Below, in pieces: positions 15,617 through 19,538 of a stretch of 64,000 bases of DNA (positions are counted from its first letter, which is position 1; each line of letters begins with the position of its first letter). A model generated the notes under the pieces. That model saw nothing but the letters and a program-made list of their open reading frames with translations, had not been told where the DNA came from and ran no database searches. This stretch comes from an uncultured bacterium (lineage in GTDB: Bacteria; Krumholzibacteriota; Krumholzibacteriia; Krumholzibacteriales; Krumholzibacteriaceae): NCBI GenBank assembly GCA_963813815.1, contig CAWFAD010000016.1, positions 384,001 through 448,000 on the forward strand, in the 5' to 3' direction. The translations under genes were made by a program, and so were the position numbers.

Positions 15617-16957
15617 ATGGAGCCGCAAGCTTCAACGCAACGCGGTACCGATGTTACTAGCGTAGAAAAGAGTGAGGATCACCCTCCTCATAGTGCTACC
15701 TGCCTCGGTCCACTGTTCGACGGACAGAGTTTTCCCCAGAAACGAATTGAGCCCAATCGTCTCTCCGGCTATCGCTCCGCCTCCGGCCGGCGCCCGCAGA
15801 CGAGCTCGCGCGTGCGGCTCTTCCGGCGGGCCTTCTTCCCCGAAGCGAGCGATCGGGAATGGAACGACTGGCGCTGGCAGATACGGCACCGCATCCAAGA
15901 TCTCGAGACCTTCGAACGCATCCTGAGCCTCTCGCACGACGAGCGGCTCGCGCTCGAGCAGGGAGGCTCGATGCTTCCCGTGGGCGTGACGCCGTACTAC
16001 ATGAGCCTGCTCTCGTACGACGATCCCGGCCAGGCGCTCCGGCGCACCGTCATCCCGAGCACCGCGGAGTTCGCCTGCGTTCCCGGCGAGTCGACCGATC
16101 CGCTCGCGGAAGAGGCGATGAGCCCGGTGCCGGGCCTCGTGCACCGGTATCCGGACCGGGTGCTCTTCCTCGTGTCCGATTTCTGTTCGACGTACTGCCG
16201 CTACTGCACGAGGTCGCGCGTCGTGGGGCACGGGGTGCTCAACCCGACCGTCGCCCGTCTCGAGAAGGCCTTCCAGTACATCAGGTCGAATCCCCAGATC
16301 CGGGACGTCCTCATCTCGGGCGGGGAACCGCTCACCCTCGGCGACGAGCGGCTCGACTGGATACTCACGGAGCTGCGGCGGATCCCGTCCGTCGAGATCG
16401 TCCGCATCGGAACCAAGGCGCCCGTCGTGCTGCCGCAGCGCATCACACCGCAGCTCGTCCGCATGCTGCGCCGGCACCATCCGCTCTGGATGAGCATTCA
16501 TTTCACCCATCCCGACGAGTGCACCCCCGAGACGAGCCGCGCCTGCGCGATGCTCGCCGACGCGGGCATTCCGCTCGGCTCGCAGACGGTGCTTCTCAGG
16601 AACATCAACGACGACGTCGAGACGATGAAGCGCCTCGTCCAGCGGCTCATGGCCATGCGGGTGCGCCCCTACTACCTCTACCAGTGCGACCAGATCTGCG
16701 GCAGCGCGCATTTCCGCACGCCCGTCGAGGCGGGGGTCGACATCATCCGCGGGCTCCGCGGATTCACGAGCGGCTACGCCGTGCCGACCTTCATCGTCGA
16801 CGCCCCGGGCGGCGGCGGCAAGACCCCCGTCATGCCGGAGTACGTCGCCGGGCGCGAGGGAGACGACCTCGTTCTGCGCAACTATCAGGGCGATATCTAC
16901 CGCTACCGCGACCCGCGGCCGGCCAATTCTCGCGCACGGGTCAAGGGAGGCCGGTAA
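15617..16957 (+). CDS. kamA: KamA-family radical SAM/PLP 2,3-aminomutase (lysine 2,3-aminomutase-like)
   Basis: WNDWRWQ, HRYPDR, CSTYCRYC, SGGEPL, YYLYQCD, SGYAVPTFIVDAPGGGGK (PLP lysine); SD GGAGG at 15603. Confidence 0.9.
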   Translation: MEPQASTQRGTDVTSVEKSEDHPPHSATCLGPLFDGQSFPQKRIEPNRLSGYRSASGRRPQTSSRVRLFRRAFFPEASDREWNDWRWQIRHRIQDLETFERILSLSHDERLALEQGGSMLPVGVTPYYMSLLSYDDPGQALRRTVIPSTAEFACVPGESTDPLAEEAMSPVPGLVHRYPDRVLFLVSDFCSTYCRYCTRSRVVGHGVLNPTVARLEKAFQYIRSNPQIRDVLISGGEPLTLGDERLDWILTELRRIPSVEIVRIGTKAPVVLPQRITPQLVRMLRRHHPLWMSIHFTHPDECTPETSRACAMLADAGIPLGSQTVLLRNINDDVETMKRLVQRLMAMRVRPYYLYQCDQICGSAHFRTPVEAGVDIIRGLRGFTSGYAVPTFIVDAPGGGGKTPVMPEYVAGREGDDLVLRNYQGDIYRYRDPRPANSRARVKGGR

Positions 16958-16963
16958 CCGCCC

Positions 16964-17971
16964 ATGAGGATCGGGCTCACCTACGATCTCAGGGCGGAGT
17001 ACCTCGCCATGGGATACGGCGAGGAGGAGACGGCCGAGTTCGACCGCGAGGAAACGATCGCCGAGCTCGAGAAGGCGATCCGGGCGTGCGGCCACTCGAC
17101 CGATCGAATCGGCCACGCCCGGAGTCTCGTCTCCCGGCTCGCCGGCGGGGATCGCTGGGACCTCGTTTTCAACATCGCCGAAGGGCTTCGCGGCGCCGGC
17201 CGGGAGGCGCAGGTGCCCGCGATCCTCGACGTTTTCGGGATTCCCTACACCTTCTCCGACCCGGTCGTCATGGGGCTCACCCTGCACAAGGGTCTCACGA
17301 AGAGCGTGATCCGCGATGCCGGCATACCGACTCCCGGTTTCGGCGTCGTCGCGCGGGAGGAGGACGCCGAAGCGATCGGCTTCCCGCCGCCCTACTTCGC
17401 GAAGCCCGTCGCGGAGGGAACGAGCAAGGGAATCGCGGCGGATTCGGTCGTGAGCGACCGCCGGGAGCTCGCGCCGCTCTGCCGGCGGCTCCTCGCGGAG
17501 TTCCGCCAGCCCGTGCTCATCGAGACCTTTCTCCCGGGGCGCGAGTTCACGGTCGGCGTCCTCGGCACGGGAGGAGAGGCGGAGGCCATCGGAACCCTCG
17601 AGATGGGGCTTCGCCCGGGCGCCGAGAGCGGAGTCTACTCGTACGTGAACAAGGAGCGTTGCGAGGAGCTCGTGGAATACATCCTCGTGCGCCCGGAGGG
17701 GGACCGCGCGGTGAGCGAGGCGGAGCGTCTCGCGCTCGAGGTGTGGCGAGTGCTCGGCTGCCGCGACGCGGGGAGGGTCGACTTCCGCTGCGACGCGGAG
17801 GGCCGTCCCCAGTTTCTCGAGGTGAATCCGCTGGCGGGTCTCCACCCGACGCATTCCGATCTTCCCATATTGTGCTCGAAGCTCGAAATCCCCTACGTGC
17901 GGCTCATCGAGCGGATCATCCTCTCGGCGTGCGCCCGTATCGAACGACCTTCCACCACCGCCTCTTCCTAG
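16964..17971 (+). CDS. ATP-grasp ligase, D-Ala-D-Ala-ligase-like (1)
   Basis: FNIAEG, KPVAEGTSKGI, ETFLPGREFTVG, GRVDFR, FLEVNPLAGL. Confidence 0.85.
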   Translation: MRIGLTYDLRAEYLAMGYGEEETAEFDREETIAELEKAIRACGHSTDRIGHARSLVSRLAGGDRWDLVFNIAEGLRGAGREAQVPAILDVFGIPYTFSDPVVMGLTLHKGLTKSVIRDAGIPTPGFGVVAREEDAEAIGFPPPYFAKPVAEGTSKGIAADSVVSDRRELAPLCRRLLAEFRQPVLIETFLPGREFTVGVLGTGGEAEAIGTLEMGLRPGAESGVYSYVNKERCEELVEYILVRPEGDRAVSEAERLALEVWRVLGCRDAGRVDFRCDAEGRPQFLEVNPLAGLHPTHSDLPILCSKLEIPYVRLIERIILSACARIERPSTTASS

Positions 17972-17977
17972 AGGATC

Positions 17978-19033
17978 ATGCGCGTCGCAATTCTTTACAA
18001 CGCGGTCAGCGAGAACGCCAAAACGGACGAGCTCGACGTTCTCGAGCAGCTCGAGGCGATCTACGCCGTCCTCGGCCGGCTCGGGGCGGCGGTCGAGCGC
18101 GTTCCGTGCACCCTCGACCTCAAAACGATCGCGCTCGCCCTCGATCGCTTCAAGCCCGATGCCGTGTTCAACCTCGTCGAGTGCCTCGAGGGGTACGGGA
18201 GGCTCATCCACGTCGTCCCGGCGATGCTCGACGCGCTGGGAGTGCCGTACACCGGCTGCTCCGCCGAGGCGCTCTACCTCACCTCGAACAAGACGCTGGC
18301 CAAGGAGCGGATGAGGGCCGCGGGAATTCCGACGCCGGATTGGGCGGGTCCGTGGCCTCGCGGCGGCGTCGCTTCCCTCGTGAAGAAGCGGAGCTCCGCG
18401 CGGCGGCGGTCGCGTCACATCGTCAAGGCGGTCTGGGAGCACGCATCCTTCGGGATGGACGACGACGTCATCGTCGACGGCGCCGACGAGGCGGGGCTTC
18501 TGGCCCGCATGGAGGAGCTCGCGCCGCGGCTTCGCGGCGAATGTTTCGCTGAGGCGTTCGTCGAGGGGCGGGAGTTCAACGTCTCGATCGTTTCGACGGC
18601 GGACGGTCCCCGCGTGTTTCCCCTCGCGGAGATCCTGTTCCTCCATTTTCCGAAGGGCAAGCCTCGGATCGTGAATTACAAGGCGAAGTGGGAGGAAGAC
18701 GCGATCGAATACCGGGGCACGCCGCGCACGTTCGATTTCAAGCAGGAGGACGGGGAGCTGCTCGCGGAGCTCGTCCGGATAGCGCGCGAGGCGTGGGACC
18801 TTTTCGGCCTGCGGGGGTACGCGCGCGTGGACTATCGCGTCGACAAGAAAAACCGTCCCTACATTCTCGAGGTGAACGCGAACCCCTGTATCTCTCCCGA
18901 TTCGGGGTTCATAGCGGCGGCGCAGCAGGGCGGATTCGGCTACGACACCCTCATCGGGATGATTCTCGACGACGCGCTGCGCCGCGCGCGGAAGCCGGCC
19001 GCCGGCAGGCAGGAGGGGGCGCGAGGTGGGTGA
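17978..19033 (+). CDS. ATP-grasp ligase, D-Ala-D-Ala-ligase-like (2)
   Basis: FNLVEC, EHASFG, EAFVEGREFNV, YARVDYR, ILEVNANP. Confidence 0.85.
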   Translation: MRVAILYNAVSENAKTDELDVLEQLEAIYAVLGRLGAAVERVPCTLDLKTIALALDRFKPDAVFNLVECLEGYGRLIHVVPAMLDALGVPYTGCSAEALYLTSNKTLAKERMRAAGIPTPDWAGPWPRGGVASLVKKRSSARRRSRHIVKAVWEHASFGMDDDVIVDGADEAGLLARMEELAPRLRGECFAEAFVEGREFNVSIVSTADGPRVFPLAEILFLHFPKGKPRIVNYKAKWEEDAIEYRGTPRTFDFKQEDGELLAELVRIAREAWDLFGLRGYARVDYRVDKKNRPYILEVNANPCISPDSGFIAAAQQGGFGYDTLIGMILDDALRRARKPAAGRQEGARGG

Positions 19034-19538
19034 CGGATCGCGGAAACGGGAACCCTGCGACGTGACGTTCCGGTACGACGTGCGGCAGGAGGATCTCGAG
19101 ACGGTCCGGGACATCGTCGAGGCGACGGGATACTTCGCCGCGAACGAGATTCCGGTGGCGGTCGAGCTCGTTCAGGATCACATCGTCAAGGGAGCGGCCG
19201 ACAGCGGCTACTATTTCGTGTTCGCGGAGATCGACGGCCGCGCGGTCGGCTATGCCTGCTACGGGCCGATCGCCTGCACGATCTCGAGCTTCAACGTGTA
19301 CTGGCTCGCCGTGCTCCCCGATTTTCAGGGGCGCGGCATCGGAAAGACGCTCATGCGGGAGACGGAGCGGCTGATCCGCGCCGCCGGGGGCGCCAGATCG
19401 TACATCGACACTTCCTACAAGGCGCAGTACGAGGACACGCGCGCCTTCTACGAGTCGTTCGGTTACTCTCTCGGGGCTCATCTGCCGGATTATTACGGAC
19501 CGGGCGACGACAAGGTCATTTACGTCAAATCGTTCTGA
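19026..19538 (+). CDS. GNAT family N-acetyltransferase
   Basis: YWLAVLPDFQGRGIGKTL (acetyl-CoA motif A), RAFYESFGY; start overlaps the upstream stop. Confidence 0.88.
   Translation: MGDGSRKREPCDVTFRYDVRQEDLETVRDIVEATGYFAANEIPVAVELVQDHIVKGAADSGYYFVFAEIDGRAVGYACYGPIACTISSFNVYWLAVLPDFQGRGIGKTLMRETERLIRAAGGARSYIDTSYKAQYEDTRAFYESFGYSLGAHLPDYYGPGDDKVIYVKSF

Follow-up and report, generated by a model that had tools for sequence, protein, structure and literature searches.

A conserved aminomutase, ATP-grasp and acetyltransferase cassette with a candidate ribosome brake in its first codons

Results

The cassette and its neighbourhood

The window analysed here, a 64,000-nucleotide stretch from the genome of an uncultured bacterium of the Krumholzibacteriaceae, carries four genes in tandem that are preceded by a short open reading frame (ORF). 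The features are as follows, with start codons as predicted:

15442..15660, + strand: upstream ORF of 72 codons with a strong Shine-Dalgarno (SD) sequence; holds the kamA ribosome-binding site
15617..16957, + strand: kamA, 446 aa, KamA-family radical-SAM/PLP lysine 2,3-aminomutase without the C-terminal zinc arm
15674..15691, + strand: leader motif of the acidic-Pro-Pro type at residues 20-25 of KamA; its first Pro codon, a CCT, stands at 15683
16964..17971, + strand: ligase 1, 335 aa, Ddl-fold ATP-grasp protein, catalytic residues intact
17978..19033, + strand: ligase 2, 351 aa, ancient paralogue of ligase 1, catalytic residues intact
19026..19538, + strand: small GNAT acetyltransferase, 170 aa, not AblB

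The tight coupling described in an earlier sequence-only reading of this DNA was borne out, with spacings of 6 nt and 6 nt followed by an 8-nt overlap. A CitMHS/ArsB-type permease gene and malQ lie upstream and truD lies downstream on the opposite strand; as that reading had also stated, efp, epmA, mur and lysine-fermentation genes were absent from the neighbours scanned. A sigma-70 scan called no promoter. In the genome, which is 90.8% complete, a search for kamD and kce of lysine fermentation gave no match to PF09043 (no control match) or PF05853 (one control match).

The earlier reading treated the four genes as one pathway, and our survey indeed found them kept together far beyond chance, in 44 of the 52 genome loci with enough flank, which span several phyla, and in 18 of 21 such metagenome loci. 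The window-type ligase was present in 41 of 251 sampled Desulfobacterota genomes (about 1 in 6), as well as in planctomycetes, acidobacteria and others, and is filed as a D-Ala-D-Ala ligase in the genomes carrying it; Desulfatitalea alkaliphila is a cultured host of the cassette. There was no match in a plasmid collection at E 1e-30, two loci on viral contigs had ligase 1 and no other cassette gene, and the cassette neighbours included no conserved transporter. Searches of open PMC and bioRxiv text turned up no account of the cassette, of what it makes or of its leader.

The aminomutase and the acetyltransferase

KamA aligned with the lysine 2,3-aminomutase (LAM) of C. subterminale (2A5H) at E 4e-141 over residues 6-368 of 416, and the end of the alignment at 368 shows that the C-terminal zinc/multimerisation arm is missing, in agreement with the lack of a C-terminal Cys zinc cluster noted earlier. 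Both Asp residues singled out in that reading were present (YQCD, D358; IVDAP, D395), together with the CxxxCxxC motif (C190/C194/C197), the PLP lysine K402 and R199, and D333 aligned to LAM Cys268. The LAM counterparts of K402, R199, D358 and D395 are the PLP lysine, the substrate Arg and the two Asp. The protein scored 339 bits against TIGR00238, over the cut-off, and 484 bits against the AblA model TIGR03820, under the cut-off of 525.4 and with the match stopping at model position 363 of 417; by score it is LAM-like and not EpmB (484 vs 242 bits). It was the only KamA-family gene found in this genome. Because the substrate residues are conserved, KamA would be expected to turn L-lysine into beta-lysine.

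The GNAT protein did not match the AblB model TIGR03827, nor did anything else in the 90.8% complete genome, where controls matched; among solved structures the closest was PDB 2R7H, whose deposited name includes the word 'putative'. An optional deacetylase, an acetylpolyamine-amidohydrolase-like domain, occurred in 24 of 80 genome loci. In the PDB it matched acetylpolyamine amidohydrolases best (E 1e-62 to 1e-70), and HDAC6 ranked below them.

The two ligases

When aligned to the genome's own Ddl, both ligases lacked the Ddl N-terminal motifs, as the earlier reading had noted, and against TIGR01205 they scored 106 and 90 bits (cut-off 246). Their catalytic R/D/E/N residues were invariant, and the ATP-, Mg- and oxyanion-binding residues were as in Ddl. 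A structure model (pLDDT 89) had a Ddl-type ATP-grasp fold, with a TM of 0.7-0.8 to Ddl structures; the fold matches listed were all Ddl proteins, and the names offered by ESM Atlas were all automatic ones of the type 'D-alanine ligase'. Ligase 1 carried Glu73, Glu231 and Asp299 in place of a His, a Tyr and a Leu of Ddl, and across 51 aligned rows E73 and D299 were invariant and E231 at least 90% conserved. These three residues presumably line the substrate pocket, an assignment that we made through Ddl numbering from an alignment of sequences. The acidic pocket would suit a cationic acceptor such as a polyamine or a second beta-lysine. The cassette ligases differ from the Ddl/Van family, whose fold and ligand-binding residues they share, in replaced pocket residues, in being two paralogues, some of them fused, and in falling under every cut-off.

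The two ligases are 28% identical to each other. Among their relatives were proteins with both ligases joined, in either order, ligases fused to KamA or to YkgJ, and ligase 2 fused to GNAT. Because ligase-ligase fusions occur in both orders, ligases 1 and 2 probably work together as a heteromeric counterpart of the Ddl homodimer.

Polyamine genes near related ligases

A sister class of ligases, 33-38% identical to those of the cassette, pointed to possible acceptors. By hand count, a pyruvoyl arginine decarboxylase gene lay directly upstream of the sister pair in 15 of 22 Desulfobacterota genomes, 15 genomes that may be kin of one another, and of the sister-ligase loci that were fetched, 7 of 7 had agmatinase and at least 4 had a deoxyhypusine-synthase-like gene. 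The sister ligases near polyamine genes lacked the acidic substitutions of ligase 1, and several had no adjacent kamA. The window's genome has an unlinked decarboxylase-agmatinase-synthase operon (C10:68.7-71.0 kb). Among the 41 Desulfobacterota genomes with the window-type ligase, none had the decarboxylase adjoining the ligases and 20 had a match anywhere, compared with 84 of 251 overall. On balance, the accessory genes favour an acceptor of the polyamine type over the formation of an ordinary di- or tripeptide. Within our best reading, we would put a polyamine acceptor slightly above an even chance and an amino-acid or beta-lysine acceptor slightly below one.

A leader motif in the first codons of kamA

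The N-terminal tail of KamA is predicted to be disordered and is hypervariable, and an acidic-Pro-Pro motif was present in 96 of 101 non-redundant tails, vs 3.9% of shuffles. The first Pro codon of the motif was CCT in 82 of the 96, a share that falls to 19% in the rest of the tail and to 12% in the core, and the codons following Pro-Pro were also skewed (GGT for 25 of 33 Gly, AGY for 33 of 39 Ser). The motif lay 11-43 codons after the predicted start in all 95 cases, and 93 of these had their first Pro within codons 11-34, which places acidic residues and Pro within about 30 codons of the start. It occurred in three separate KamA lineages, and further Desulfobacterota KamAs had it in 18 of 18, with CCT in 17. 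Two loci (L229, L230) bore it on an ORF ahead of ligase 1, without kamA; seven other loci whose ligase 1 is not preceded by kamA lacked the motif, which for the most part therefore goes where kamA goes. Of nine efp-linked KamAs inspected, one had EEPP in an open frame (L115). The motif varied in places: the window's clade has His-Pro-Pro-His rather than Glu-Pro-Pro-Gly/Ser, and a single Pro was found in 9 of the 96.

Passages of PMC8129111 describe CCU or CCC as the first codon of Pro-Pro as avoided, slow and slippery, and an excerpt of bioRxiv 10.1101/2021.02.02.429294 reports that acidic/Pro sequences at the N-terminus make ribosomes abort translation as long as the tunnel is not yet filled by about 30 residues. 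Conservation of the motif, its CCT bias and its position near the start therefore point to a programmed translation pause, for which the leader is a rather likely candidate; the use of TCN for the Ser after Pro-Pro in another family of the same phylum counts against this. A +1 frameshift product at the motif was considered and rejected, as the distance to the first stop in the +1 frame, 3-169 codons, was not shared among the loci. Local folds held no conserved RNA pairing partner of the leader, and no coupled attenuator was seen.

Neither this leader motif nor the upstream ORF figured in the sequence-only reading. The last 44 nt of the ORF run into the start of kamA. It is a genus-level feature: it was present, at 71-73 codons, in 10 of 10 close-kin loci examined, always with its stop 25 nt before the leader's first Pro codon, and was not seen among the other lineages listed and inspected. 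Over the first 22 codons of the ORF, the second position varied less than the other two (113 vs 242 and 334). It had no Pfam match.

Discussion

Our overall reading, to which we assign a probability of roughly 0.5, is that the cassette makes an amide of beta-lysine, perhaps with a polyamine, that is acetylated reversibly and whose synthesis is controlled at translation. Judged from gene content and conserved residues, the cassette probably joins beta-lysine to another amine and acetylates the product. KamA would convert L-lysine to beta-lysine, and ligases 1 and 2 would activate the carboxylate with ATP and make one or two amide bonds, with a polyamine (putrescine, homospermidine or cadaverine) or a second beta-lysine as the ligase 1 acceptor. 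GNAT would then cap a free amine and the optional deacetylase-like domain would take the cap off; with capping and uncapping, the product would therefore be a small polycation toggling between a charged and an acetylated form. As for control, the conserved Pro-Pro signal in the first kamA codons has the look of a ribosome brake built into the pathway. Ribosomes early in kamA would meet an acidic run and Pro-Pro on slow codons with the exit tunnel still unfilled, and would stall or drop off unless conditions allow passage, which would throttle KamA and, by polarity, the coupled genes.

Parts of this scheme have counterparts in known systems. AblA/AblB, whose product is N-epsilon-acetyl-beta-lysine, likewise combines a lysine 2,3-aminomutase with an acetyltransferase, but the cassette GNAT is not AblB, its KamA lacks the C-terminal arm and falls under the AblA cut-off, and two ligases and an optional deacetylase are added. 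Glutathionylspermidine synthetase/amidase and gamma-glutamyl-putrescine synthesis form an ATP-dependent amide bond to a polyamine and have a reversing hydrolase nearby; they use other ligase families, whereas the donor in the cassette would be beta-lysine and reversal would be by deacetylation. The MgtL leader, N-terminal IRD sequences and the PPW pause of the AZIN1 uCC also place acidic residues and Pro near an N-terminus and use conditional stalling as a sensor. Unlike these, the cassette motif lies inside the enzyme's own frame and not in a separate leader ORF, and has no attenuator structure that we could find.

An unlikely alternative is that the ligases modify a protein or peptide, with the acidic Pro-Pro tail of KamA as substrate or amino-group carrier (compare LysW for LysX), or with some other protein being beta-lysylated and acetylated. 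The acids before Pro-Pro are conserved while third positions are free, several tails have two copies of the motif, and a two-copy ORF persists without kamA, all of which would suit a peptide substrate; a YkgJ/CxxCxxCC gene also accompanies ligase 1 in 29 of 80 loci, and GNAT plus deacetylase fits protein acetylation as well. Selection on a protein substrate, however, would fix neither the CCT codon nor a spacing of at least 11 codons between start and motif. The ligases moreover share the Ddl fold with small-molecule ligases, acetylpolyamine amidohydrolases are the closest matches of the deacetylase, and related cassettes lack the motif.

The version favoured by the sequence-only reading, a salt-induced osmolyte in the form of an N-acetylated di- or tripeptide that pairs beta-lysine with an ordinary amino acid, is in our view improbable. 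AblA/AblB, cited in PMC3543383, sets a precedent, and a KamA closest to the AblA model beside two ligases and an acetyltransferase would be in keeping with it. What stands of that reading is a co-conserved, uncharacterised pathway of beta-lysine formation, ATP-grasp ligation and acetylation. Its argument for a stress solute, drawn from proximity to trehalose and malQ genes, does not stand, as only 7 of 81 loci have malQ adjoining the cassette, and these 7 are all closely related to the window. The osmolyte version is also at odds with a GNAT that is not AblB and with the Asp and Glu that ligase 1 has where Ddl binds the carboxylate end of its acceptor.

The leader could instead act as RNA, with CCUCC mimicking the 16S rRNA tail and masking a ribosome-binding site until a ribosome on the motif opens it. 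CCTCC is present in 77 of 95 motifs, and in the window's clade the motif resembles the 16S 3' end. Native leader/SD pairs were nevertheless no more stable than swapped ones (-9.2 vs -9.5 kcal/mol, with 94% of permutations as good), a weak test because all SDs are alike. The mean pairing probability was 0.08, exceeding 0.3 in only 7 of 83 cases, departures from CCTCC mostly lacked a compensating change in the SD, and the local folds shared no common partner, which together make masking quite improbable.

We rejected three further identities. The lack of any ablB match in the 90.8% complete genome speaks against AblAB itself. The cassette is very unlikely to stand in for EpmA by attaching beta-lysine to EF-P: this genome has no epmA (the best match is a lysyl-tRNA synthetase) and only the one KamA, but both of its EF-Ps have Asn rather than the target Lys at the loop tip, which also disfavours the EF-P form of the protein modification proposed earlier. 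Furthermore, 29 of 50 cassette genomes have epmA over the cut-off, many with a separate KamA beside efp; EpmA and the cassette thus coexist in many genomes, and the systems are not exclusive. EpmB, according to passages of PMC2821294, also lacks the C-terminal multimerisation domain, whereas the cassette KamA is LAM-like and not beside efp, a gene absent from the conserved neighbours of the cassette. Variant D-Ala-D-X ligases for the cell wall are equally hard to credit despite the Ddl fold, the listed matches and the database label 'D-alanine-D-alanine ligase', given that the Ddl signatures are missing, mur genes are absent from the conserved neighbours and a true ddl lies elsewhere (C16:269258, 310 bits). 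This ddl and the co-conservation of the four genes run counter to the outcomes that the earlier reading had named as grounds for dropping its pathway.

By analogy, and as a speculation that we hold to be unlikely, the reversibly acetylated amide of our overall reading may be a new beta-lysyl-polyamine, a polycation acting on ribosomes or nucleic acids and parked by acetylation, with the product or the cellular polyamine pool lengthening the kamA Pro-Pro pause as feedback, as polyamines do at the eIF5A-dependent PPW pause of animal antizyme inhibitor. The AZIN1 PPW pause responds to polyamines via eIF5A, as stated in part of a review (PMC8705083). If true, this feedback would constitute a bacterial metabolite sensor inside an enzyme's own N-terminus, common to many anaerobic phyla. 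Once identified, the product would extend the range of beta-lysine metabolites and of uses for the Ddl fold, and from the leader motif one may learn how polyamine or lysine status is linked to translation in anaerobes.

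A conserved aminomutase, ligase and acetyltransferase cassette

The four open reading frames first recognised from sequence alone were recovered at the same positions; successive genes are separated by 6 nt and 6 nt, and the last two overlap by 8 nt.

15617-16957, + strand: kamA
16964-17971, + strand: ligase 1
17978-19033, + strand: ligase 2
19026-19538, + strand: GNAT

Profile search assigned the first product to the KamA aminomutase family (TIGR00238, 339 bits; AblA model, 484 bits against a cut-off of 525; EpmB model, 242 bits). Its alignment covers residues 6-368 of 2A5H and retains the cluster cysteines, R199, D358, D395 and K402, and it agrees with the sequence-only reading that the C-terminal zinc arm is missing. 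We presume the roles of these residues from those of their counterparts in LAM. The fourth gene encodes a small GNAT whose sole strong structural relative, 2R7H, was deposited as putative; truD (19520-20752, minus strand) overlaps its 3' end by 19 nt, an adjacency confined to close kin (8 of 81 loci).

The genome scan confirmed 460 loci; among the best 80 of these, cassette hosts belonged to Krumholzibacteriota, Desulfobacterota, Planctomycetota, Acidobacteriota and Fibrobacterota, plus one Polyangiaceae genome. The genes, which had been read as a single pathway, do travel together: all four were present in 44 of the 52 genome loci and 18 of the 21 metagenome loci with enough flank. Window-type ligase 1 (at least 430 bits) occurred in 41 of 251 evenly drawn Desulfobacterota genomes. 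Two add-ons recur among the same best 80 of 460 loci, a YkgJ/CxxCxxCC gene (29/80) and a GNAT-deacetylase (24/80) that is often fused to the terminal GNAT; the window carries neither. Double-ligase proteins in both orders, as well as KamA-ligase and YkgJ-ligase fusions, were seen in the 30 of 150 matches scanned. YkgJ and ligase 1 stand alone in two loci, L021 (7407-9014) and L023 (4810-6403), where kamA, ligase 2 and GNAT are absent; protein match P0017 is listed with them. Because of this isolated pair and the YkgJ-ligase fusion, YkgJ may partner ligase 1.

Ligase 1 relatives also stand alone on two IMG/VR contigs (L196:6001-7026 and L197:5998-7014), one of them among ORFs judged by eye to be methyltransferase- and glycosyltransferase-like, and protein P0090 (980 aa) fuses leucine-rich repeats to a ligase 1-like domain. 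Downstream of the cassette in loci L199 and L200 lie genes for an amidohydrolase and a PuuD-like peptidase C26 (score under cut-off), next to a peptide permease and a NagZ-like gene recognised by eye.

Proximity to malQ had been taken to favour a stress solute. Since malQ adjoins the cassette in only 7 of 81 loci, those of the window and its closest kin, it is uninformative on function and that support falls away. Elsewhere in the window, trehalose-6-phosphate synthase is fused behind a Cache/HAMP sensor-like region (3629-5863) and is followed by T6P phosphatase, DUF5752 and TreT; a qmoC-like gene (232 bits against a cut-off of 300) lies at 1824-2903.

The ligases are Ddl-like and the cassette is distinct from AblAB, EpmAB and Ddl

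Ligases 1 and 2 are Ddl-like ATP-grasp proteins with 28% mutual identity, and both missed every Ddl or Van cut-off in the profile search. Ligase 1 is confidently modelled with a Ddl fold (pLDDT 89), and ATP-, metal- and oxyanion-binding residues are retained in both. In alignments with DdlA of Pseudomonas and with the Ddl of this genome, E73, E231 and D299 of ligase 1 replace Ddl His, Tyr and Leu, and E73 and D299 are invariant across 51 ligase 1 rows. Because E231 and D299 fall in what we take, from the Ddl structure, to be the acceptor-binding region, we infer from the alignment that this site would suit a cation lacking a carboxylate. In a tree of 41 rows, ligase 1-type and ligase 2-type proteins separated with support of 100/97, and distant pairs mostly comprised one of each.

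The window's assembly (2.5 Mb, 90.8% complete) holds a true ddl and one KamA-family gene; neither ablB nor kce was found at that completeness, and kamD gave no match in a search in which no control rang. The gene scoring best against epmA encodes lysyl-tRNA synthetase, and in both EF-Ps the loop-tip residue is Asn. Among 50 cassette genomes checked of the 80 from the genome scan, 29 had epmA over the cut-off, often with a second KamA adjoining efp. Given this genome content and the coexistence of epmA with the cassette in other genomes, the cassette is no stand-in for EpmAB, AblAB or Ddl; on the features tested it belongs to none of them. Its working would be comparable to that of AblAB extended by amide ligation and to polyamine-conjugate pathways with a reversing hydrolase.

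The two EF-P genes (L081:1420-2061 and L082:1486-2055, a locus pair on contigs C6 and C1) each come immediately after a permease and a folE-like gene, in what is apparently a duplicated block.

Links to polyamine metabolism are suggestive only

Acetylpolyamine amidohydrolases are the best PDB matches of the add-on deacetylase. In 15 of 22 genomes by hand count, a pyruvoyl arginine decarboxylase gene lies directly upstream of a sister class of ligases (33-38% identical); agmatinase is present in all 7 fetched loci, and at least four also have a deoxyhypusine-synthase-like gene. The window's genome has arginine decarboxylase, agmatinase and deoxyhypusine-synthase-like genes as an operon unlinked to the cassette. 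An XRE-cupin regulator precedes kamA in four related cassettes; its PuuR score is weak and far under cut-off. Against a polyamine link, the decarboxylase was adjacent to the ligases in none of 41 window-type genomes and present anywhere in 20, and the acidic substitutions of ligase 1 are missing from the sister ligases. Together, these data make a polyamine link suggestive only.

The sister operon (L210-L216) combines a deoxyhypusine-synthase-like gene, agmatinase, arginine decarboxylase, a ligase pair, a GNAT and a methyltransferase, with an extra RimK-like third ATP-grasp in L214, and is a separate, putative and uncharacterised polyamine-conjugate pathway.

A Pro-Pro leader in KamA points to translational control

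The KamA N-terminal tail, 60-150 residues long and not alignable, is predicted to be disordered (modelled pLDDT <50 at residues 1-30 and 35-44). Its sole fixed element is a run of acidic residues followed by Pro-Pro and a residue that is Ser, Gly, Asp or His.

15442-15660: upstream ORF, overlapping the kamA start and containing the kamA SD
15674-15691: leader motif within kamA

Of 101 non-redundant tails with 45 or more residues, 96 contain the motif, 87 of them as Pro-Pro and 9 with a single Pro; among shuffled tails the rate is 3.9%. CCT is the first Pro codon in 82 of the 96, compared with a share of 19% at other tail positions, 12% in the protein cores and 16% of Pro-Pro first codons genome-wide. 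The following codon is skewed to GGT and AGY; in another family it is TCN, not AGY. When kamA starts are predicted by SD strength, the position of the first Pro ranges from codon 11 to codon 43 and is never earlier (95 of 96 scorable). In a separate draw, all 18 Desulfobacterota KamAs had the motif, 17 with CCT; the true motif of locus L221 has CCG. By crude gene calls, about 1% of the window genome's own genes (12/1205) carry such a motif. Three KamA lineages have it while their sisters do not, and in two genomes without kamA there, it sits on the ORF ahead of ligase 1. It was absent from 7 other kamA-less loci and from two clades of cassettes with an upstream XRE-cupin or two-component cluster. 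The ORFs ahead of ligase 1 (L229:3072-3647 and L230:3255-3725) are of no known family, have two motif copies each and share ~118 codons. In L204, L205, L207 and L208, motif-less kamA lies directly downstream of the XRE-cupin regulator gene.

Because frame and codon are fixed and the distance from the start is confined, the leader would act in translation, which points to a translational signal rather than a binding peptide or DNA site. In published work, CCU or CCC as the first Pro-Pro codon is avoided, slow and promotes +1 slipping (PMC8129111); acidic/Pro sequences cause translation to abort as long as fewer than ~30 residues occupy the tunnel (bioRxiv 10.1101/2021.02.02.429294), a limit matched by the upper edge of the motif position; EF-P-dependent pauses include PPG, PPS and PPD (PMC4140641); polyamines compete with eIF5A at the AZIN1 PPW pause (PMC8705083, a review); and MgtL is described (PMC12856214). 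By likeness to these cases, the kamA leader is a candidate site of ribosome pausing. That its CCUCC instead hides the SD found no support: native leader/SD pairs paired no better than swapped ones, with a mean pairing probability of 0.08, in what is a weak test. In addition to the candidate pause at the leader, the window's close kin likely have a second control layer in the upstream ORF: in 10 of 10 close-kin loci an ORF of 71-73 codons with a strong SD spans the SD of kamA, and its stop lies 25 nt ahead of the CCT.

No account of the cassette or leader was found in the open literature, and passages of PMC3543383, PMC2821294, PMC6544042 and PMC8836040 do not describe the cassette. The enzymes of the cassette belong to known families, but its leader is both unexplained and highly conserved, and would be easy to test.
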